A DNA stretch of 64,000 bases from an uncultured delta proteobacterium (lineage in GTDB: Bacteria > Desulfobacterota > Desulfobacteria > Desulfobacterales > UBA2156). The notes under the pieces were generated by a model. That model saw only the letters and a list, made by a program, of their open reading frames with translations. It was not told where the DNA came from and searched no databases. Positions 14,385-64,000 of the stretch are shown one piece after another; position 1 is the stretch's first letter; each line of letters starts with the position of its first letter. The stretch is from assembly GCA_963736855.1 (NCBI GenBank), contig CAVTQK010000021.1:687464-751463 (forward strand), given 5' to 3'. Made by a program: the position numbers and the translations under genes.

Positions 14385-16310
14385 ATGTTGAAGCAACATC
14401 TGAAAAAGTACTTCGGATTTGATTCGTTTTTAAAGGGGCAGGAAGGGGTCATTCAAAGAATTCTGGATGGGAATTCCGCGGTTGCCATCTTCCCTACCGG
14501 AGCAGGTAAATCTTTGTGTTATCAATTACCGGCTATGATGCTTCCCGGTTTAACCCTGGTGGTATCTCCCCTGTTGTCCCTGATGAAGGATCAACTGGAT
14601 TTTCTGCTGGAAAACCATATTCCCGCCGCGCGTCTGGATTCCACCCTTGATAAGGCTGAATATAACGCTGTTCTTGAAAGGGCCAAAAACAATGAATTGA
14701 AAATCCTGATGATATCCGTTGAACGGTTTAAAAATGAATGCTTTCGTTTCCATCTAGAACGGATGAACGTTTCCCTGCTGGTTATTGACGAAGCCCATTG
14801 CATTTCCGAGTGGGGGCACAATTTCAGGCCGGAGTACCTGAAACTACCGAATTATCAAAAGGAATTCAAAATCATGCAAACTTTACTGCTCACTGCAACC
14901 GCGACAAAGCCGGTCATTGATGATATGTGTGCAAAATTCAACATTCCCAAAAAAAATGTATCAGTTACCGGTTTTTATCGAAACAATCTGTTTATTCAAA
15001 TTACACCGATTGGCACATCCGAAAAAAAGCAATACCTGCTAAAGCGTATTCTTGAAACACCCGACGCATCCATGATTGTCTATGTAACCCTTCAAAAAAC
15101 AGCCGAAGCGGTTTCGGATTTTCTTCGCGAAAACAACATCAACTCCCACGCATATCATGCCGGAATGGAAAATAAGGAACGAGAACTGATCCAAAACCGG
15201 TTTATGGAAGGAACGGTCTCCTGTATCGTTGCCACTATTGCCTTCGGGATGGGCATCGATAAGAAAGACATCCGCAGGATTATTCACTACGATTTGCCCA
15301 AATCGATTGAAAACTACAGCCAGGAAATCGGACGATCCGGAAGAGATAAAAAGCCTGCATTGTGCGAAGTTCTGGCCAATCGGGACAACATCCATATTCT
15401 GGAAAATTTTATCTATGGGGATACACCGGAAAAGCAATCGATTGTTCAGTTGCTTCAAACCATAAAGAAAAATCCGGGCTTTGTATGGGAAATAAGGGAA
15501 ATGAGGCTTTCAAATGACCTGAATATCCGGTTGCTGCCCTTGAAAACGTTATTGGTTTATCTTTCCATGGAAAAGATTATCCGTCCCAAACTTTCATACT
15601 TTGAATTCTATTCCTTCAAGTACAGGACAGAACCGGAAAATATTATCAACCGGTTTGAAGGGGAAAGGAAACAGTTTGTACAATCGGTCATCAACCACTG
15701 TTTTACCAAGAAAGTATGGACGGATGTGGATATTCAAGCCGTTATAAACAGCTACCATACGGATCGGGAGCGAATTCTCGCCGCGTTGGATTACTTCGAC
15801 GAGAAGGGCTGGATCGAACTTCAAGCCAGACAGTCCGTGGAAGTGTATGATATTTTAACCCAGGCCTTTGATATCGAAACTGTAACCAATAAAATGTTTT
15901 CCCTGTTTAAAAAGAAGGAGCAACTTGAAATTCAAAGAATTCATCACATGATCCACTTTTTCGAAAGTGATACATGTGTCAGTAAAAAGCTTGCCGGATA
16001 TTTCGGGGAGCACCTGGAGAAGGAGCGCTGTGGTCATTGCTCTTTTTGTAAAAGCGGAAAAGCGGTGTTAATTCAAAATACCGAATTGAAGCCGATTGCT
16101 CATTTCGATTTTAAAACGATTATCCATGAATTTAAAAATGCTATAAGAGATCAATTTTCAGACACCAGTTTAACAAAATTTCTCTGCGGGATTTACACAC
16201 CGGTTTTTTCCAGTTTAAAAATCAAAAACCTGTCCTATTTCGGTGTTCTTGAAAATTATCATTTTATGGAGGTACAAAACTGGGTTAAAGATCAAATGAA
16301 GTTACAATAA
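14385..16310 (+). CDS. recQ: RecQ-family ATP-dependent DNA helicase
   Basis: 641 aa. Has FPTGAGKSLCYQLPA, VIDEAHCISEWGHNFRPEY, TATAT, helicase-C (IATIAFGMGIDKKDIR...QEIGRSGRD) and a C-terminal CGHCSFC motif. Confidence 0.85.
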   Translation: MLKQHLKKYFGFDSFLKGQEGVIQRILDGNSAVAIFPTGAGKSLCYQLPAMMLPGLTLVVSPLLSLMKDQLDFLLENHIPAARLDSTLDKAEYNAVLERAKNNELKILMISVERFKNECFRFHLERMNVSLLVIDEAHCISEWGHNFRPEYLKLPNYQKEFKIMQTLLLTATATKPVIDDMCAKFNIPKKNVSVTGFYRNNLFIQITPIGTSEKKQYLLKRILETPDASMIVYVTLQKTAEAVSDFLRENNINSHAYHAGMENKERELIQNRFMEGTVSCIVATIAFGMGIDKKDIRRIIHYDLPKSIENYSQEIGRSGRDKKPALCEVLANRDNIHILENFIYGDTPEKQSIVQLLQTIKKNPGFVWEIREMRLSNDLNIRLLPLKTLLVYLSMEKIIRPKLSYFEFYSFKYRTEPENIINRFEGERKQFVQSVINHCFTKKVWTDVDIQAVINSYHTDRERILAALDYFDEKGWIELQARQSVEVYDILTQAFDIETVTNKMFSLFKKKEQLEIQRIHHMIHFFESDTCVSKKLAGYFGEHLEKERCGHCSFCKSGKAVLIQNTELKPIAHFDFKTIIHEFKNAIRDQFSDTSLTKFLCGIYTPVFSSLKIKNLSYFGVLENYHFMEVQNWVKDQMKLQ

Positions 16311-16345
16311 AAAAATCATTGAAAGTTTAAAACATCAATTTTCCT

Positions 16346-18721
16346 ATGGCAAAAACAAAAATACAAAAAGCAAAAAGAAAAAGCAAAATAAAAACCCACC
16401 GGAAAACAGCGGTTGCATCTGTTCGATCAGAAAAAGCAGACTTTTATTATTGGGAATATGAAAGCTATTTTGAATCCAGGAACCTCGATAAGGCGTTGGC
16501 AAATTTAAAAAAGGCTATCAAGATTCAACCCAACAATGCGATGTTTCTTGAACAAATGGTTCGACTGGGTTTCGCAATGGATAACAATGATGTTCAATTG
16601 TCCGGGCTTTCAGCGCTTTATGAAAGCGGGCAAATGGAAAAGGACTATTTGCTGTTTTATTTAGACTCCCTGATCATAGGCAAAAAATATCTGCTGGCCT
16701 TAAATATTGCAGAGAAATTGCTGTCCCAGCTTGACAAAATGAAGGTTAAAAACAAACTGAAACTCAGGAAAGCAATCATACAGAATAAGGAATACTGTCA
16801 GTATCATCTGAAAATCGAGCGTATACTGAAAACTGCACCTGAAAAAGCCCATCAAAAACCTTCGTCACCAAAAAAGGAGAAACCAGGTTATTTATCTTCA
16901 AAGCCTGTTCCTCAGGAACACAAAGTGGGGAAAATATCAAACCTTCCACTCATCAAACCAGATCATCATGAAAAGAAAAATCCTGTTCAGGATATTCCGG
17001 TTACTTTTCTCCTTGATGAAAATTCTTTTATACTTCCTTTTTCTAATAATCAGTTGATGACTTATTCACAATATGAACTGGCTCTGGAAGGGCATTGCAT
17101 TCGGTTCAGAGATTCGTATGAGAACCTGATCTGTCTCAACAGTCTGCATAACATTCAGTCTCTCTGGTATCAGGAAGAAACGGCAAGAAAGGTTCTGAAA
17201 AGCTTTCGGGGCCGCGCCCTTCTGTCCGACGAAGTGGGATTGGGAAAAACCATCGAAGCCCTTATCATTTTAAAAGAATATATCAAAAGAGGCATTGTTA
17301 AAAATGCCTTGATCCTGACCCCTGCAACCCTTGTCAGCCAGTGGCAGGAAGAGTTGCAGACCAAATTCGGGCTTTATTTTTCATCTACCGATGACCCAGA
17401 TTTTCATAAAAAGGGAGTACAATTTTGGGAAGCCCCTTACATCCTTGCCTCTATTAATCAAGCCAAATCCAAACGAAATTACGATGAGGTTATCCAAAGA
17501 GAGTATGACATGGTGATTATAGATGAAGCGCACCATTTTAAAAATAAAAATACACTGAGCTGGAAACTTGCCAATTCCCTAAAAAAGCGATTTCTTCTTT
17601 TGTTAACAGCAACACCGGTGGAAAATAACCTGATGGAGCTTTATAATATCATCACCCTGTTAAAGCCCGGCCAGTTGAAAACCGCATCGGCATTTCGCAA
17701 GGAATTTATGACCAGAGGCGACCCCACCGGACCTCAAAACCGCAGCCGGTTGAAGGAACTACTGGGTCAGGTAATGATTCGGAATACTAGGGCTCTGGCG
17801 CAAGTCGGTATTCCCCCAAGGTTTGCACAGACTCTGCGGATAAAATCTGGGGCAAACGAAAGAATGTTATACACCCGGATTACGGATCTGGTTTTGCATG
17901 TTCATAAAGCTGATGGTAACAGCGGGAACACGCTTTTGCTTAAAAATCTACTTGCTGAAGCCGGCTCATCTCCCAGAGCGGTGGAACTGACTTTACAACG
18001 CGTTCTTTCTAAAAGAGATTTTTTGTGGGATTATGAAAAAGAGATAAAAGCTATTCATAATTTATGCCGTACTATGGGGGATACGGAAAAAAATAAGGCA
18101 TTGCACCATCTCATCACATCAACCAATGGAAAAAAAATCATTTTCGTTAAATACCTTGGAACTCTGGATCATATATCAGAATTCTTATCCTGGAATAATT
18201 TTTCCCATGTTATTTTCCATGGGGGAATGAATCACGTTCAAAAGGATGAAGCCATCAACATCTTTCGTGAAGAAAAAGATCTCCTCATTACAACAGAAAT
18301 CGGCGGCGAGGGACGGAATCTTCAATTCTGCCACCAGATGATCAATTATGATCTTCCCTGGAATCCCATGAAAATTGAACAAAGGATCGGCAGAATCCAC
18401 CGTCTCGGACAGAAAAATGAGGTGATGATTTATAATTTATGTGCAGCAGATAGTATTGAGGATTACATTCTGGATATTCTGGACCGGAAAATCAACATGT
18501 TTGAAATGGTTATCGGTGAGATTGATATGATTATAGGTCGCATCCAAGAGGAAAAGGAATTTCCCGATATGGTATACGATATCTGGATAAATGCAGCATC
18601 CGATATCGAGCGAAAACAAGGTTATGACCAGCTTGCCATACAACTGAAACGGTCTAAGGAACAATACGAGAAGACCAAAATTCTGGACCAAAAGCTTTTT
18701 GGAGAAAATTTTGAACTTTAA
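16346..18721 (+). CDS. SNF2-family helicase with Lys-rich/TPR-like N-terminal extension
   Basis: 791 aa. Has DEVGLGKTIEA, IIDEAHHFKN, LLLTATPVENNLMELYN and YDLPWNPMKIEQRIGRIHRLGQ. Confidence 0.85.
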   Translation: MAKTKIQKAKRKSKIKTHRKTAVASVRSEKADFYYWEYESYFESRNLDKALANLKKAIKIQPNNAMFLEQMVRLGFAMDNNDVQLSGLSALYESGQMEKDYLLFYLDSLIIGKKYLLALNIAEKLLSQLDKMKVKNKLKLRKAIIQNKEYCQYHLKIERILKTAPEKAHQKPSSPKKEKPGYLSSKPVPQEHKVGKISNLPLIKPDHHEKKNPVQDIPVTFLLDENSFILPFSNNQLMTYSQYELALEGHCIRFRDSYENLICLNSLHNIQSLWYQEETARKVLKSFRGRALLSDEVGLGKTIEALIILKEYIKRGIVKNALILTPATLVSQWQEELQTKFGLYFSSTDDPDFHKKGVQFWEAPYILASINQAKSKRNYDEVIQREYDMVIIDEAHHFKNKNTLSWKLANSLKKRFLLLLTATPVENNLMELYNIITLLKPGQLKTASAFRKEFMTRGDPTGPQNRSRLKELLGQVMIRNTRALAQVGIPPRFAQTLRIKSGANERMLYTRITDLVLHVHKADGNSGNTLLLKNLLAEAGSSPRAVELTLQRVLSKRDFLWDYEKEIKAIHNLCRTMGDTEKNKALHHLITSTNGKKIIFVKYLGTLDHISEFLSWNNFSHVIFHGGMNHVQKDEAINIFREEKDLLITTEIGGEGRNLQFCHQMINYDLPWNPMKIEQRIGRIHRLGQKNEVMIYNLCAADSIEDYILDILDRKINMFEMVIGEIDMIIGRIQEEKEFPDMVYDIWINAASDIERKQGYDQLAIQLKRSKEQYEKTKILDQKLFGENFEL

Positions 18722-57302: not shown

Positions 57303-58331
57303 TCAACTTGTTACCCTGACCGGAGCGACTTTTGGATACATCAAATTATCCAGGGGGCTTGCTACCGCATCCAGGTTTTTCTGCATCACGTGAGTATAAA
57401 TCTCCGTGGTTTTCACGTCGGCATGCCCCATCAATTCCTGGACCATCCGGATATTCACACCGTTTTCCAGCAAATGGGTGGCAAAACAGTGGCGGAAGGT
57501 ATGACAACTGACCCGCTTCATGATTCCGGCGCGATTGACAGCGGTTTTCACCGCCTTCTGAAGACCGGATTCCAGGACATGATGCCTCCGCGTCACGCCG
57601 GTCCGGGGATCCACGCTCAGCGTCTTGGAGGGAAACACGTACTGCCATCGAAACTCCCTCCCTGCCTTCGGATACTTTCTTGCCAGGGCCTCGGGCATAT
57701 GGACCTCTCCGAACCCTTTCTCAAGATCCTCCTGATGAAGGCGCTGAACCCTTTCCAGGTGCCTTTTCATCTCATCGCGGACCGCTTTTGGAAACAACGT
57801 TCTGCGCCCCTTTCCCCCTTTGGCTTCCCGGACATAGACCGATTTTCGTTCAAAATCCAAATCCTGCACTCTCAGCCGCACGCATTCCATCAATCTCATG
57901 CCGCACCCGTAGAGCATTTTTGCCATCAGAAGGTGGGTCCCGCTCATCTCGTCCAGAACTTTTTTTACCTCTCCTTGCGTCATGACCACCGGCACATTCG
58001 GATGCCGCTTGGCCCGGACCTGAGCGATTTCTCCTTCAACGGGCTGCAACAGGACATATCGATACAGAAAAATGATGGCGTTCAACGCCTGCCTCTGGGT
58101 GGAAGCCGATACCTTTTCCCGGGTTGCAAGATGGCTGAGAAACGCTTCGATTTCCTCCTTTCCCATTTCGCGGAGGTGTCTTTTAGCCCCATGGAACCGA
58201 ATAAACCTTACGATCCAATCACAATAGCTTGTTTCCGTCCTGTAGGCATAATGGTAATATCGAAGGACCTGTCGAACCTGATCCATGAGTTTTAACTTGG
58301 CATTCGGTATAAATTTTTGTTTGATTTCCAT
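57303..58331 (-). CDS. intI: integron integrase
   Basis: 342 aa. Has [18 protein letters not shown], the IntI-specific insertion [33 protein letters not shown], and the [12 protein letters not shown] and [14 protein letters not shown] catalytic boxes. It is divergent from an attC-separated ORF array. Confidence 0.9.
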
Positions 58332-58334
58332 AGG

Positions 58335-58354
58335 GCTTGACCGTATAGTTGGAT
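58335..58354 (+). other. candidate attI simple site GCTTGAC-cgtata-GTTGGAT
   Basis: An inverse-core-like 7-mer, a 6-nt spacer and a GTTRRRY core. It lies only 4 bp from the annotated intI start, so the position is suspicious. Confidence 0.25.
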
Positions 58355-58454
58355 TAATGGAAAAAGGCTGAGCTGTTTTCCGTTTTCCGATCTTAATATT
58401 TCAATAGATGGATTTTTTAGCATGCTATAACCTTCATATCAAGCAAATTTTTCC

Positions 58455-58534
58455 ACTTAACCAAACTGATGGGGCGGACCGCTCGCTAGTGCTCGCTCGG
58501 CTTTTGGCCGTCCACCCCATCGGCGCTGTTGAGC
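58455..58534 (+). other. attC site 1
   Basis: R'' ACTTAAC (RYYYAAC), spacer caaac, GATGGGGCGGAC pairing with GTCCACCCCATC (one mismatch), spacer ggcgct, R' GTTGAGC (GTTRRRY). Confidence 0.55.
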
Positions 58535-58601
58535 TTCGGCTCTTCATGGCCTTTTGGGCTCCGCTCGGTCGGTTGGGGGCGGCTCAACAGCGGCGTTCGG
58601 G
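58515..58601 (+). other. second attC-like palindrome overlapping attC 1
   Basis: GTTGAGC (58528) pairs perfectly with GCTCAAC (58582), followed by spacer agcggc and R' GTTCGGG (58595-58601). The expected R'' position holds CCCCATC (no AAC). Confidence 0.4.
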
Positions 58602-58625
58602 GATAATAAAATGGAGGAAAACGTA

Positions 58626-59126
58626 ATGAAAAATATCATGACACACCACACAAAACTTGCGTTACTTCTTATTTTAGCTGTCACATTCATCACAAATACT
58701 GTGAATGCACAGGTTGTATGCAATAAGTTCAAGTTAGTGACAAAAGTCACAGGCTCGACACTCGACCTTTCGTTAGATACCGATCTGCCTGACAATACGG
58801 TTGTCATGGTCAGCGTATCACGGTCTTATTTGGAAAAAGGGAACACAGCTACATACTCCGCGGACTATTTCTCAGAAAAGAGCACCGTCGGAAAATGGAA
58901 GTCGAAACATAGAATTTCCGTTGACAGTGGGAAATGGAAGTCTGCACTTAGAGAAAAGCAAGAAAAGATGTCCAGACTCGGACTTGGTTTTGACGTTGCA
59001 TCCATCAGCGAAAAGATCACAGCGCGCATGGTAGCTCCTATTAACCAACCAGATCCTCGGTTCGGAAAACAAAACTCAAAGCTTACCGGCAAGGCGGTAA
59101 GGGGCAACTGGTCTCCGGGTCGTTGA
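58626..59126 (+). CDS. cassette 1: secreted hypothetical protein
   Basis: GGAGG lies 8 nt before ATG 58626. Has a signal peptide MKNIMTHHTKLALLLILAVTFITNTVNA. The 72-nt upstream extension in the ORF track is rejected. Confidence 0.55.
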   Translation: MKNIMTHHTKLALLLILAVTFITNTVNAQVVCNKFKLVTKVTGSTLDLSLDTDLPDNTVVMVSVSRSYLEKGNTATYSADYFSEKSTVGKWKSKHRISVDSGKWKSALREKQEKMSRLGLGFDVASISEKITARMVAPINQPDPRFGKQNSKLTGKAVRGNWSPGR

Positions 59127-59151
59127 GGATGAGAGCGAGATAGACTATCCG

Positions 59152-59463
59152 TTGGATTCACCACCTGTAGGCAAGTCCCCTTTTCCAAGTCTGAATCCAT
59201 TAGAATTGGAAGTCGGTCAAGCATACATCGTTACCAAACAAACGCCTCTCATGCCATCACACAGCCCGGCTGATCCCATAGCAGCACTGCAAAAGATGAA
59301 ACAAATTCCAGAGGGCGGAGGTTTTAAAGTGCATGACATGTTCGATAAAAAAGGTAACCCCTGGTATAGGGTAAGCGCATTTGATCAAAGAAAAAAACAG
59401 ATTGGAACAGGCTGGATTAACAGTACGGCCTTACTTGGCCAACAACTCAAGGCATACAAGTAG
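59152..59463 (+). CDS. cassette 1: SH3b-like domain ORF, probably the displaced C-terminus of the preceding gene
   Basis: Has a TTG start and no convincing RBS. Its frame is open from 59101. GFKVHDMFDKKGNPWYRVSAF...GTGWINSTALLG resembles bacterial SH3 domains. Confidence 0.4.
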   Translation: MDSPPVGKSPFPSLNPLELEVGQAYIVTKQTPLMPSHSPADPIAALQKMKQIPEGGGFKVHDMFDKKGNPWYRVSAFDQRKKQIGTGWINSTALLGQQLKAYK

Positions 59464-59474
59464 CTCATCGGAAT

Positions 59475-59563
59475 CCCGAACAACGGCATTAAGAGCAACG
59501 GCAAAAAGCCACCGCGCCTTATGCCGGGCGATGGCCATAAGAAACCCGGATAATGGGTTCAAC
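59475..59563 (+). other. attC site 2 (R' ambiguous)
   Basis: R'' CCCGAAC, spacer aacgg, L'' CAT[T]AAG pairing with L' CTTATG (extrahelical T). The expected R' position reads GATGGCC (59530). The only GTT core nearby is GTTCAAC (59557). Confidence 0.5.
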
Positions 59564-59585
59564 AATTTGTCAGAAGGAGGGAACC

Positions 59586-59789
59586 ATGAAGACATTTATT
59601 GGTATCGTCCTCGGTATCTTTTCGGGCTTTCTGATCTACATGGCGTCTGCCATGTTGTTCGTCAGGGGCGCGCCGTCTGGTGCCTTTGTACTCGTTACGT
59701 TCGTCGGTGGTTGGGTCGTATCAAGTGTCATCATAACTCGCGGCGCCACAAGCGTCTCCAAAGTTTTTTCAAGGGGTTTCCTTACCTAG
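59586..59789 (+). CDS. cassette 2: small membrane protein (2 predicted TM helices), ends at an in-frame TAG
   Basis: AGGAGGG RBS before ATG 59586. Sequence MKTFIGIVLGIFSGFLIYMASAMLF...VLVTFVGGWVVSSVII. Confidence 0.5.
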   Translation: MKTFIGIVLGIFSGFLIYMASAMLFVRGAPSGAFVLVTFVGGWVVSSVIITRGATSVSKVFSRGFLT

Positions 59790-59810
59790 GGGCTGCAGAG
59801 TGGGCTCGCC

Positions 59811-60122
59811 ATGATTCCAGTGGGTCTCCTGTTCAGCGCTAAAGCCGTCTCCGAAACGACTGCAAGCGTTTCGCACGATCCTTCCGGAGCTGCTGCAGCC
59901 GGAGCAGCCATTGGCGGAGGCATAATGGCGTTTCTCACAGGAGGGGTCGCTGTATTTATGAGTATTGTTTGCCTTGCCGGGTTTGCGGTATCGTATTTCA
60001 TGGGTCGTGAAATGAAGCCGGAGGGCAAGGAGCCAACGCAGAAGTGCCCTTATTGCGCCGAGATGATACAGGCAGAAGCCAAGAAATGCCGTTACTGTGG
60101 TGCGGAACTCACCGCCCTTTGA
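59811..60122 (+). CDS. cassette 2: membrane protein with C-terminal zinc ribbon, same frame as the preceding ORF
   Basis: Has GGIMAFLTGGVAVFMSIVCLAGFAVSYF and then CPYCAEMIQAEAKKCRYCG. No RBS precedes ATG 59811. It is separated from ORF 59586 by TAG plus 7 sense codons in the same frame. Confidence 0.5.
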   Translation: MIPVGLLFSAKAVSETTASVSHDPSGAAAAGAAIGGGIMAFLTGGVAVFMSIVCLAGFAVSYFMGREMKPEGKEPTQKCPYCAEMIQAEAKKCRYCGAELTAL

Positions 60123-60149
60123 TAGCAACAAACGTTACGAAAGGGCAAG

Positions 60150-60209
60150 GCCGAACCAATGGGTGAACTTGACCGCACAAAATCGCGGCAAGTTACCCTA
60201 TCGTTAGGG
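60150..60209 (+). other. attC site 3
   Basis: GCCGAAC-caatg-GGT[G]AAC-TTG[A]CCGC-acaaaatc-GCGGCAA-GTTACC-ctatc-GTTAGGG. This is the canonical architecture with two extrahelical bases. Confidence 0.7.
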
Positions 60210-60225
60210 ATCATAATAGAAAACT

Positions 60226-60855
60226 ATGATTAAAAATGTTGCCAACCTTCTAAAAGCTCTAATTGATCAAGAGACTAAGAAACTAGATCAATTTGATATA
60301 AAACATGGCCCAACAATCGGGAACATGTATGAAGGGTTAACTGCAGATATTCTTAATAAGGCTATTCCGCCTAAAATTAACTTGAAATTAATGTCGGGTT
60401 TTATTCACGACGGTCAAGGCAATATGACCGGCGAAATTGACTGTATGCTCGTTGAGGGTGATGGAGAAAAGGTACCATATACAGAGAAATACAAATGGCA
60501 CATAAAAGATGTAATCGCGGTTTTTGAAATCAAAAAGCACTTATATTCAAAGGAACTTAAAGATTCTTTCATACATCTCCGTGGTGTTCTGGATACATAT
60601 GGACGTTATGTTGACACTGGTAATGGAAGTAAGACTTTCGATGTCTCCTCATCGTTGAGAGCATTCGCAAAAATTACGGGAATCGTAGCTCCCGATAGGA
60701 AAGATATCGAAAAATTACCTTTTGAATTACAAATTATTTATCACACCCTTATCACAGAGCAAATATCGCCAATAAGAATTGTCCTTGGTTATCACGGATT
60801 CAAATCTGAAAATAATCTGCGAGATGCATTAATTGATTTCCTTAGGGTTTGTTAA
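60226..60855 (+). pseudogene. cassette 3 gene, 5' part (PD-(D/E)xK, DUF6602-like nuclease fold), interrupted by IS at 60844/60845
   Basis: GNMYEGLTADILNKAIP...GEIDCMLV...VIAVFEIKKHL gives a D...ExK layout. The last 3 codons (RVC*) are read from the IS inverted repeat. Confidence 0.65.
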
Positions 60856-62131
60856 TAAATAACATGTACAAATCAGTTGCAACTTATGGTTTGATGCTAT
60901 AATTCCATTCACCGTGAAAAGTATGCGGCTTAAGCTTGATCTGTTTCATCTCTTGGTCCGATACCTTAATTTTAGTAGGGTATTTTCGTTTATCGAGTTT
61001 GGCCTTCACCCGAAGACCTTGCTGCGTAGATGTTTTGCCAATCAGCTTAACGATCACCTCATGACTGACCAAAGGTCTGCCTCGCCAATTCATGCTGATA
61101 TGCGAAAACAGTCTATGCTCAATCTTGTTCCATTTGCTCGTCCCAGGAGGGAAATGACAGGTTGTAATCTGGAAACCCGTCTCCGTGGCAAAAGATTGCA
61201 ACTCTACCTTCCACAATCGAACCCGGTAACCATTACTTCCCCCGCCATCGGCGCAGATCATCAGATCTTTGGCCTCAGGATAAATAGCCTTCCCCATACT
61301 CAACCACCAGCGCCTGATGCTGGCAACCGCAAAACTGGCAGTGTCATGATCACAGCCTACATTGATCCAGCCCATATTTTTGCCGATATCATATATTCCA
61401 TAAGGAATAACCTTCGGCGATTCGAGACTTGCAAAATCATGGACTTCCACTTTCTCGGGTGCCCCTTTGGGCTGCCATTCTCTCCCCGGATTCTTAAAAT
61501 TGCCCACCAACTCCTTTTTCTTGGTGTCTACCGATATTACCGGTTGCCCCCGCTTAAGAAATTGCTTCACTTCCTCATTAATGTAGTTAAATTGAGCATC
61601 CCGATCAGGATGTTTGCTCCCCTCCAGCGTCTTGGCATTGGCTTGCAAGCTATAATCCAAATCATGAAGCAATTCGGCAATCGTTACATGACTTGCTCGG
61701 TAACCTTGACGCGCCAATTCGGTCGCAAGTTGTCGCGTGCTTTTGCAAGTCCACCGCAGGGGGGATTCAGGATCCCCTCGGGTTACCGGGTCAACCAACA
61801 ATTCCAATTCCTTCGAAAGATCAGGGTAATGTTCTTCAACACCCTTACGACCTGCACCAGGCTTGCGAATTCGTTCGGATACTGGAGAATGCAATTGAAT
61901 TTCCTCCAGGGCTTTATAGATGGTCACACGAGATACACCAGTAGCTTGGGCCACTTTGGAAATACCGCCCCACCCGAGGGCTTTAGCTTCCGCCCCCAAA
62001 AACAATCTCCGCTGTTTCTCGTTGAGATGCGGCAAAACGGTGTTCAATTTGATGGAAAGCTGTTGTTCTGTATTCATGCATAACGTATATCACATTCAAT
62101 CTAATTGTACAAGTTAATTTTTAACGACCCC
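60845..62131 (-). mobile_element. ISAzo13-family insertion sequence (1287 bp) with 27-bp imperfect TIRs and TTA target duplication
   Basis: Left end is GGGTTTGTTAATAAATAACATGTACAA. The reverse complement of the right end is GGGGTCGTTAAAAATTAACTTGTACAA (22/27 identical). It is flanked by TTA at 60842-60844 and 62132-62134. Confidence 0.8.
60884..62077 (-). CDS. ISAzo13-family DDE transposase
   Basis: 397 aa. Has DPESPLRWTCKSTRQLA, HPDRDAQFNYIN, VDTKKKELVGNFKN, ADGGGSNG, PPGTSKWNKIEHRLFSHIS and FHGEWNYSIKP, as I recall for the 'Rhodopirellula transposase' DDE family. Confidence 0.85.
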   Translation of the reverse strand: MNTEQQLSIKLNTVLPHLNEKQRRLFLGAEAKALGWGGISKVAQATGVSRVTIYKALEEIQLHSPVSERIRKPGAGRKGVEEHYPDLSKELELLVDPVTRGDPESPLRWTCKSTRQLATELARQGYRASHVTIAELLHDLDYSLQANAKTLEGSKHPDRDAQFNYINEEVKQFLKRGQPVISVDTKKKELVGNFKNPGREWQPKGAPEKVEVHDFASLESPKVIPYGIYDIGKNMGWINVGCDHDTASFAVASIRRWWLSMGKAIYPEAKDLMICADGGGSNGYRVRLWKVELQSFATETGFQITTCHFPPGTSKWNKIEHRLFSHISMNWRGRPLVSHEVIVKLIGKTSTQQGLRVKAKLDKRKYPTKIKVSDQEMKQIKLKPHTFHGEWNYSIKP

Positions 62132-62134
62132 TTA

Positions 62135-62802
62135 GTGCGAACCTTATGTCTGAGGGTTTTGGAGTGAACAGTTTCCCTCAGTTAATAATAAGTGGGCAAT
62201 ATTCACTGGTGAAAATGAACGGCCATCCTTATTCATCACCAATAATTTCAGAAAATTGGAATTTTTATGGATCGGCAAGGACGAATCCAATTCTATTAAT
62301 TCTAGAGTTTATATGGACTCGCCTTTCTAGATCCTATGGAATCTCAGGATTATGGGGGGACGATTTAAAATTAGAAAATTTTATTTTACTTCTTTCAGGA
62401 AAGATAAAAAAAATTGGGAACAAATCTGGGTGGGAATATAATTTCACGAAAATCGACAATTCTACTTTGTCATCAGAACCTGCCGAAATTGATTGGGAAC
62501 CGACATATGTTACCAGTGAACAATTCACCATATTTAACCGATTATGTGAAGGTGAACTTGAAAGAACAGACGACCCTTATTTGATTGATTTTCTAAATAA
62601 TAACGGACTTGATCCTGACCAATTTTTTAAAGAATTGATTGAAACCGGTTTGGTTGCACTCGATGGAAAGGATCTCACTTTAACAACAGAATCTTGTCAA
62701 TGCTTGGTCTTGCCTAATGGAAAATTCGCTGTAGCAGAAAATAACTCTGGACGATTAACGAATTGGATTTTACAATTCATGGAAAAAAGGAGAAATCCCT
62801 AA
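62135..62802 (+). pseudogene. cassette 3 gene, 3' part
   Basis: In frame with 60226-60844 once the IS and one TTA copy are removed (...DFL-SANLMSEGFGVNSF...). The joined ORF is 428 aa. Confidence 0.65.
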
Positions 62803-62887
62803 CCATGCGGTTCACTTGACGCCGGGATCGTCTGTTGCGCTGATGCGGGAAGCCCATTGGCGGCGCAAGTGACCTTAAACGTTATAG
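62797..62887 (+). other. attC site 4
   Basis: CCCTAAC-catgc-GGT[T]CAC-TTG[A]CGCC...GGCGGCGCAA-GTGACC-ttaaac-GTTATAG. R'' overlaps the stop codon and is the exact complement of GTTAGGG at 60203. Confidence 0.7.
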
Positions 62888-62910
62888 CCGAATAATTAAA
62901 GGGGATTATA

Positions 62911-64000
62911 ATGAATAACGATCATATTCAAATCAGTAAAGGTGACTCGTGGATAGGCAGTGATATCACCGCTACAGTTACCAGGAATCACGATCAAATT
63001 CAGGTCGGTCAAGCGCAAGCTTATCGAAATGTCTCTGGCACACGTGTTTTGAAATATACAGTCGAGATGTTTCATAAGGGATTAAATGAACACAAATTAC
63101 TGTCTGCCCCTGAGCTTGATATGTTACAGAACAAAGCCAACCTACAGGCTCAGAAATGGACTGAAAAATGGAACCTGATAGAATCTAGGCGCAGAATTTC
63201 TGAACAAAAAGAAGCCAACATTGACGAGGCAACTTCCAAAACAGAAGAAGCGATTGAGGCTTTAAAACAAATCGATAATCTACTTGTTCATACTCTATCG
63301 GTTAATGATGCAGTAGATTGGGAAAAATTGAAGAAAAAGGATAAATATTCAGAGAAAAACACCTGAAAAGCCTATTAAGAAAAAATACAGGGAATATCCA
63401 CCAGCACCAACAAAGGAATACGCCAATTTTTACTTTCTTGGAAAAGTTAATTCTAAAATCAAGAAAGGAAAGAAAAATCAAAGAAGCCGAAACAAAATAT
63501 GTAGCGGCCATTTCAAAATGGGAAAAGGCGAAAAAAGTCATTGATGGCCTCAATAAGAAACTGGACAAAGATTTCGATGATATCGAAATGAAGAAATGGG
63601 AGAATGCTGTTTCAGAATGGGAAAAAAGAAAAGCTGACTTCTTGCAGCAACAAGATGACTTCAACGCGAAAATAGACAAAATGAGGGAGGCGTATTTAAG
63701 CCAAAATCCAGAGTCGATTATTGAATATTGTGAAATGGTCTTGAATAATTCGGAATATCCTGAGACTTTCCCTCAAAACTTTGAATTGGAATACAACCCT
63801 GATAATAGAATCTTGATTGTTGAGTATGAATTACCTTCAATAGAATGTCTGCCAAAAGTAAAAGAAGTAAAATATATCGTGCTCGGAAGGAATTAAAGGA
63901 GACTTACATTTCGGAGCCTCAAATAAATAAAATGTTCGATGAGTCAATGTATAAAATTACGTCTTCGGTCAATTCACGAATTATTTGAAGCAGATGCAGC
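62911..64000 (+). pseudogene. cassette 4: coiled-coil-rich gene with at least four frame changes, runs off the window end
   Basis: The reading frame hops four times. (1) 62911-63366 (...KKKDKYSEKNT*) to PEKPIKKKYREYPPAPTKEYANFYFLGK. (2) On to ...KIKEAETKYVAAISKWEK...VEYELPSIECLPKVKEVKYI (63438-63896). (3) On to RARKELKETYISEPQINKMFDESMYKI. (4) On to RLRSIHELFEADA. Confidence 0.55.

Follow-up and report, generated by a model that had tools for sequence, protein, structure and literature searches.

A stretch of 64,000 nucleotides from the genome of an uncultured delta proteobacterium (GenBank accession number CAVTQK010000021.1; positions 687464 to 751463; hereafter the window) almost certainly carries an integron in the Desulfobacterales-like chromosome of a bacterium akin to sulfate reducers, with an intact intI gene, an attI site and an array of attC-bounded cassettes that runs past the window end. 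A preliminary description had proposed such a chromosomal integron, and profile, structural, covariance-model, comparative and population evidence agreed with it; what was shown beyond the window is the last cassette only, over ~0.8 kb. The array runs in order from attI (crossover at G58468; the crossover point is written ↓ below) through a 127-bp gene-less cassette, a frameshifted gene for a secreted protein, a cassette with two open reading frames (ORFs) for membrane and zinc-ribbon proteins, a DUF6602 nuclease-like gene split by an insertion sequence (IS), and an Mrr-like gene. It is an ordinary example of an integron apart from its gene-less first cassette, and the GAT-type gene-less cassette family found at attI is the most unusual element of the locus.

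The integrase was assigned on family cutoffs and structure alignment. The product of intI scored 441 bits against the NCBIfam integron integrase profile TIGR02249 (cutoff 265), and Pfam identified a SAM-like N-terminal domain and a catalytic domain. The structure of VchIntIA from Vibrio cholerae (2A3V) aligned continuously with residues 18-329 (E 2.6e-90), the insertion included, and in this alignment the catalytic R, K, HxxR, H and Y positions were all kept. The intact 342-aa tyrosine recombinase with an IntI-specific insertion reported in the preliminary description is thus supported by both the profile and the structure. The tyrosine-recombinase fold and catalytic residues are also common to the chromosome-dimer recombinases XerC and XerD, and a Xer-like recombinase would have undone the identification. 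However, the XerD and XerC profiles reached only 151 bits (cutoff 330) and 141 bits (cutoff 335), respectively, and Xer structures aligned in two pieces that flank residues ~195-258, the IntI-specific insertion, placing the protein outside the XerC/XerD families. No dif-like context was found around intI. The closest relatives of the integrase, with 74-77% identity, were encoded by metagenome-assembled genomes (MAGs) of Desulfobacterales/Desulfobacteraceae.

Upstream of intI lie 57 kb with intact metabolic genes, among them genes for a glucan phosphorylase, a 4-hydroxybenzoyl-CoA-reductase-like protein, methylmalonyl-CoA mutase, hydantoinase A/B and a CzcA pump. Next to intI, genes for transposition or conjugation were absent from this stretch. 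As intact central-metabolism genes flank the integron, its location is taken to be chromosomal, and this setting indicates a location that is probably non-mobile.

The attC sites were examined using relatives' integron loci and metagenome contigs (designated L followed by a number), which include a set of 80 IntI loci. A strict geometric search (RYYYAAC followed by a spacer of 5 nt, 3 bp, a bulge, then 6 bp, with the mirror-image order on the second arm up to a final GTTRRRY) found 58 matches on the array strand of the 80 loci and 10 on the opposite strand. A covariance model, R1, was built from 49 non-redundant sites in 20 other genomes, none from the window. Applied to the relatives, it identified 112 sites, of which 109 lay on the array strand. 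When both strands of the entire window were scanned without filters, R1 returned exactly two significant matches, at 60150-60209 (42.9 bits, E 4.5e-8) and 62797-62887 (42.5 bits, E 5.4e-8), both mid-range among true attCs. Each has the architecture R''-5 nt-L'' with two bulged bases followed by L'-5/6 nt-R', the R''/L'' arms reading GGT[G]AACTTG[A]C and GGT[T]CACTTG[A]C, respectively, and bottom-strand folds placed the two extra bases of each as bulges on the '' arm. The L-box sequence is common only to these two among the visible attCs, which are 60, 62, 87 and 91 nt long and also differ in sequence. Four attCs in a plus-strand array divergent from intI had been listed in the preliminary description; the orientation was correct, and the two sites above, with the extrahelical bases looked for in their folds, and a third beginning at 59475 stood up, whereas the first, 58455-58534, did not.

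The 7-mer that opens a cassette was found to be the exact reverse complement of the R'' that closes it for GTTCGGG at 58595 with CCCGAAC at 59475 and for GTTAGGG at 60203 with CCCTAAC at 62797, as had already been noticed. The same rule held at 8 of 8 successive junctions in the L062 array and throughout the L003 array, and it extends to the gene-less cassette (GATGGGG with CCCCATC). Cassette boundaries were also apparent as breaks in homology exactly at the crossover G, and three of the cassettes recur elsewhere, in arrays where their neighbours differ, as expected of discrete mobile cassettes cut at G↓TT. In L081 and L082, the DUF6602 cassette lies between attCs, and the homology extends from G↓TTAGGGATC to AAACG↓TT. 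In L207 and L208, homology to the secreted-protein cassette runs from G↓TTCGGG up to the attC G. For the Mrr-like cassette, DNA identity to L209 (94.6%, interrupted by four indels of one nt each) sets in precisely at G62881. When the window array was compared with the 80 IntI loci using tblastx for common cargo, only a zinc-ribbon match was found.

The site beginning at 59475 (site 2; 59475-59536) consists of an R'' box CCCGAAC, a 5-nt spacer, CAT[T]AAG[A]GC...GCCTTATG, a 6-nt spacer and GATGGCC in the R' position, and scored 4.0 bits with R1. It is 93-94% identical to sites in the L003 and L010 arrays, and the L003 copy scored 24.6 bits; there, the R' box GTTGGGT matches the next R'' (ACCCAAC) and the R'' box ACATAAC matches the preceding R' (GTTATGT). 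A metagenome contig, L206, was found to be 100% identical to window positions 58514-59530 over 1016 nt, apart from a 1-nt indel, and then to join 59530 to 60204, reading ...GGGCG↓TTAGGGATCATAATAGAAAACTATGATT, which corresponds to window positions 60204-60231 (the next cassette starts TTAGGGATC). The 673-bp segment 59531-60203 is therefore precisely absent from L206, with both breakpoints right after a G, and the same attC stem followed by GTTAGGG in L206 scored 21.7 bits. This segment is cassette 3, which starts with AT and ends with the attC at 60150-60209, and the ORF at 59811-60122 encodes a protein with a C-terminal zinc ribbon (Pfam).

As L206 lacks cassette 3 exactly at two G↓ crossovers, site 2 is a working attC, and its low score in the window is due solely to the GAT that cassette 3 supplies to R'. 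On these comparisons, site 2 is a real and recently used attC in which GAT is the start of cassette 3. The preliminary description was thus right about the site, supported both by L206 and by the homologues in L003 and L010, but its R' is GATGGCC and not a GTT box. An alternative in which the GAT at 59530 arose from an inactivating GTT to GAT mutation in a decayed attC was rejected, as the same stem recombines there in L206. In class 1 attC x attI1 recombination, the second nucleotide of GTT was reported to tolerate change, and T to A raised the recombination frequency (Frumerie et al. 2010; PMC2811028). By analogy with these class 1 experiments, G↓AT junctions would be expected to work, and the integrase of the window presumably catalysed the event that led to the presence or absence of cassette 3.

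In L010 (58-98) and L208 (~2150-2190), an attC of the site 2 family is followed by G↓AACCCCGCAGT..., the same downstream sequence in two unrelated arrays. It starts with AA, not TT, which makes it a further natural exception to the GTT crossover triplet.

The attI site was delimited by aligning the region upstream of intI from 10 relatives, which share a conserved TGGAAA/TTTCCA block ending in ...TTTTCCAnCTAnnnnnAnTG↓TTRRRY and are unrelated in sequence beyond this point. The window sequence aligns without gaps and reads ...CCAAACTG↓ATGGGG, which places the crossover at G58468, with TG↓AT in the window where the 10 relatives have TG↓TT. The window reads GATGGGG where the relatives read GTTRRRY because a cassette that starts with AT is inserted there. 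A 17-nt imperfect inverted repeat (58349-58365 and 58448-58464; 82% complementary) encloses the attI region and represents the TGGAAA/TTTCCA motifs kept in the relatives, which are candidate binding sites for IntI or a regulator.

The preliminary description instead took 58455-58534 as a first attC, with an empty cassette between it and attI. This stretch has the xxxxAAC-5 nt-stem...stem-5 nt-GTTxxxx geometry and is the best local alignment of R1 there. However, its score is 3.7 bits, compared with 42-43 bits at true sites, and the stem (58468-82/58507-21) contains two mismatches but lacks an extrahelical base. The supposed R'' (ACTTAAC, 58455-61) lies within the attI block that is also present in relatives with no downstream hairpin, and the supposed R' (GTTGAGC) is the conserved inner box of the gene-less cassette family, which pairs with GCTCAAC at 58582-88. 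A first attC at this position is therefore highly improbable, and the stretch is assigned to attI and the gene-less cassette.

The segment 58469-58595 contains no ORF and sits exactly between the attI G and the TTCGGGG of the next cassette, and its removal in silico recreates ACTG↓TTCGGGG, a normal attI junction. Inverted repeats are present at 58468-82/58507-21 and 58515-34/58582-601, and the segment has an atypical recombination site at 58515-58601, CCCCATC-6-GTTGAGC...GCTCAAC-6-GTTCGGG. A profile search identified further members of the family in L056 (3 copies), L058, L102, L113/L145 and L189, giving a sample of eight copies in six integrons, in every case inserted immediately behind the G of an attI or attC site. 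The three copies in L056 follow an attC G, and those in L058, L102, L113/L145 and L189 are all at the attI crossover. With the window included, five of the six carrier integrons have the element at attI. Aligned full-length copies are ~180-215 nt from site to site. As ~95 alignment columns of the family core are absent from the window copy, it is a deletion derivative.

The family layout consists of an AT start, GATnnnn...nnnnATC, a 6-7-nt spacer, GTTG(A/C)GC, a variable structured core, GCTCAAC, a 6-7-nt spacer and G↓TT. RNAalifold predicted 53 pairs for six sequences, 12 of them with compensatory changes, and the opening 7-mer covaries with the internal ATC box (GGGG/CCCC, AAGC/GCTT and AGGC/GCCT). 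The attI of L056 is empty (ACTG↓TTGGACG) and the near-identical attI of L058 is occupied by a family member, thus it is likely that the element is mobile. As judged from sequence, it behaves as a cassette with a GAT/ATC in place of a GTT/AAC recombination core, with base-paired spacers and no bulged bases. A crossover-bounded, ORF-less segment recurs in this way in six different integrons, as expected of a gene-less cassette.

Gene-less integron cassettes are known from Treponema and Vibrionaceae arrays, and some act as promoters (PMC6557892; bioRxiv 10.1101/2023.11.21.568050). Like these, the members of the family described here are cassette-sized, bounded by crossovers, without a plausible ORF and present in several arrays. 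However, they are GC-rich and strongly structured, have a GAT/ATC rather than GTT/AAC core triplet and a fully paired recombination site, and mostly occupy the first position at attI. One tentative possibility is that they represent a specialised 'minimal cassette' lineage that spreads among Desulfobacterota-type integrons via a G↓AT crossover and a fully paired site and settles preferentially in the first array position, next to attI. Its members might be selfish passengers that exploit IntI, or structured leaders that govern expression of the array or access to it.

It is also conceivable, but rather doubtful, that the 127-bp segment is not mobilised by IntI and instead extends attI as a structured element, serves as a cis-regulatory leader that came with the integron platform, or is another small mobile element that targets the crossover. 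The proximity to attI in five of six integrons, the fully paired site that lacks the bulges and unpaired spacer of a canonical attC, and the rejection of the segment by R1 would all fit such an origin. However, close relatives differ in whether attI is occupied (L056 and L058), three copies in L056 lie behind attC sites, the junctions are exactly cassette-like (G↓AT...G↓TT), and the opening 7-mer covaries with the internal xxxxATC box. The segment has no other copy in 64 kb, unlike a repeat of the repetitive extragenic palindromic (REP) type, and no Rfam family matches it.

Several other identities were considered for the gene-less element. A match of the full-length members to MicX was rejected as sub-threshold (21 bits against an Rfam gathering score of 75). 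A group II intron remnant was rejected because there is no GUGYG end and no Rfam match, the search of the whole window with Rfam having returned none, and a REP element with its REP-associated tyrosine transposase (RAYT) was rejected because the window holds a single copy. An alternative 'inner attC' fold of full-length members scored 19 bits in L102 and competes with the hairpin supported by covariation. In a pattern scan of metagenomes for the family, 4 of 120 loci were real and the remainder were mostly chance GC-rich matches. Two further elements were tentatively recognised in L056 (3700-4900 and 1-520, minus strand) by reading translations, namely an IS91-like transposase gene (zinc-finger and Y2) in the first cassette position of the array and, further along and near the gene-less copies, duplicated genes related to REP-associated tyrosine transposases.

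Of the cassette products, all of which had been considered unnameable in the preliminary description, two could be identified, one as a DUF6602/PD-(D/E)xK-like nuclease and the other as an Mrr-like restriction endonuclease, but the product of cassette 2 is indeed of unknown function. The IS in 60204-62881, the frameshifted Mrr-like gene and the 1-nt frameshift in cassette 2 are likewise additions to that description. The gene in cassette 2 is broken by one extra G in a run ending at 59101, and deletion of one G gives a 283-aa protein with a signal peptide; intact homologues are 278-283 aa long and up to 100% identical.

The IS in cassette 4 encodes a transposase with full-length matches to NF033519 (606 bits) and PF07592 (497 bits) and has imperfect terminal inverted repeats and a 5-bp target duplication, CTTAG, at 60841-45 and 62131-35. 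With a DDE transposase, inverted ends and a target duplication, it belongs to the ISAzo13 family, from which it differs in nothing notable; it is inserted in a cassette gene, not in an attC, and is the only copy in the window. Removal of the IS and one target duplication restores a 428-aa DUF6602 ORF, which has full-length homologues of 428 aa with 80-81% identity. A PADLOC PD_DExK match (1.5e-12) was found at the N-terminus of the DUF6602 protein.

The gene in cassette 5 contains four 1-nt indels (~63360, 63419, 63878 and 63961). Once stitched together, its product matches 602-aa proteins with PF22722 and PF04471 (P0121) at 88% identity across 98% of the product length. In L209, the Mrr-like cassette ends in an attC ~1.95 kb from the cassette start, thus the window cassette is expected to run ~0.8 kb past position 64000. 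Assembly errors were judged an unlikely source of the indels in the cassettes, which are probably real, as the backbone genes have complete domains. The indels at 63419, 63878 and 63961 adjoin a CG dinucleotide (AATA-CG, ATCG-TG and TTA-CG) and not homopolymer runs.

Table 1. Features of the integron and its cassettes (window coordinates)
Feature	Coordinates	Strand	Basis
intI, integron integrase, 342 aa, intact	57303..58331	-	TIGR02249 profile; alignment with VchIntIA 2A3V
attI region	58349..58474	+	crossover G58468; TGGAAA/TTTCCA repeats; alignment of 10 relatives
Cassette 1, gene-less, GC-rich, 127 bp	58469..58595	+	inverted repeats; family homologues
Cassette 2, 278/283-aa secreted protein gene (58611/58626-59463)	58596..59530	+	attC 59475-59536
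Cassette 3, two small membrane-protein ORFs (59587-59789, 59811-60122)	59531..60203	+	absent in L206; attC 60150-60209
Cassette 4, 428-aa DUF6602/PD-(D/E)xK-like nuclease gene (60226-60845 + 62136-62802), IS-split	60204..62881	+	attC 62797-62887
ISAzo13-family IS, 1285 bp, transposase 60884-62077 (-)	60846..62130	-	NF033519; PF07592; target duplication CTTAG
Cassette 5 (incomplete), Mrr-like restriction endonuclease gene, N-terminal ~360 of ~600 aa	62882..64000	+	P0121 protein; L209 DNA comparison

Some features of the array weigh against its identification as an integron of the usual kind. The cassette 1 site has neither an unpaired spacer nor attC-type bulged bases and is not recognised by R1, two of six junctions read G↓AT and not G↓TT, and the opening GATGGCC of cassette 3 pairs with its own closing R'' (GCCGAAC) at 4 of 7 positions only. 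For an array promoter, only consensus-like matches were found; the scan for a Pc promoter gave a 9/12 consensus match at 58321-58349 on the plus strand. Most of the cargo is also damaged, by one IS insertion, five frameshifting indels and the internal deletion of the gene-less cassette, thus the present-day usefulness of the array is doubtful.

The damage, which affects four of the five visible cassettes (the 1-nt frameshift, the IS, the four indels and the deletion) and probably reflects real indels given the intact backbone genes, would be expected of a dead integron relic, in which the integrase is intact by chance and the array is frozen, decaying and no longer recombining. Such a relic is unlikely, however, as L206 is identical over 1 kb and differs by exactly one cassette at G↓ crossovers, intI is complete and encodes all catalytic residues, and the scores of the two canonical attCs lie in the middle of the range for true sites. 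Because L206 is otherwise identical and differs by one exact cassette, a very recent event of the IntI type is probable, and these comparisons indicate that the integron has recently recombined. The term 'sedentary', also applied in the preliminary description, is unproven for an integron with approximately five visible cassettes and attCs that differ in length and sequence.

In an integron that works in the established way, the tyrosine recombinase IntI would recombine folded single-stranded attC hairpins with the double-stranded attI beside its own gene. Strand exchange right after the G of G↓TT would insert or excise promoterless cassettes, and these would be read in the plus direction from a promoter near intI. 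The cassettes in the window are presumably transcribed from a Pc-type promoter.

The locus resembles environmental chromosomal integrons (IntegronFinder catalogue) and the V. cholerae superintegron with VchIntIA in the IntI insertion, the adjacent divergent attI, the R''/L''/L'/R' boxes of attC with two bulged bases on the '' arm and a crossover after G, the complementarity of the opening 7-mer and the closing R'', and the defence-like cargo. However, the attCs in the window vary in length and sequence, whereas the V. cholerae repeats (VCRs) of the superintegron are uniform. The window also departs from the superintegron paradigm in its Desulfobacterales-like host, its approximately five visible cassettes, its largely pseudogenised cargo and its two G↓AT junctions.

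These findings leave the integron paradigm unchanged. They add, from a little-studied anaerobic lineage, an integron with clear limits in which every cassette boundary was checked by comparison, and they document in nature that a cassette was recently gained or lost. The PD-(D/E)xK-like nuclease and the Mrr-like enzyme are encoded by defence-type cassettes that have been caught mid-decay. A covariance model alone would miss both a functional attC with a GAT R' and the whole GAT/ATC gene-less family, thus surveys that require GTT may undercount cassettes.

Further observations were made in the relatives' arrays and elsewhere in the window. In a Desulfatiglandales MAG chromosome (L025:204-8379, minus strand), six identical 131-nt attCs are located exactly 1609 bp apart beside intI, and the same cassette has apparently been tandemly amplified six times. 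In L058 (19-135, minus strand) and at the 3' ends of L084 and L085, a group II intron D1-D4 match (115 bits) and reverse-transcriptase genes were found within cassette arrays or at their ends; these elements are consistent with group IIC introns that target attC sites. In the window itself, a RecQ-family helicase gene adjoins a gene for an SNF2-type helicase (14385-18721, plus strand). The best partial matches of the SNF2-type helicase were to the DISARM DrmD and DpdE models, all below cutoff, and this island may be involved in defence or DNA modification, unrelated to the integron.

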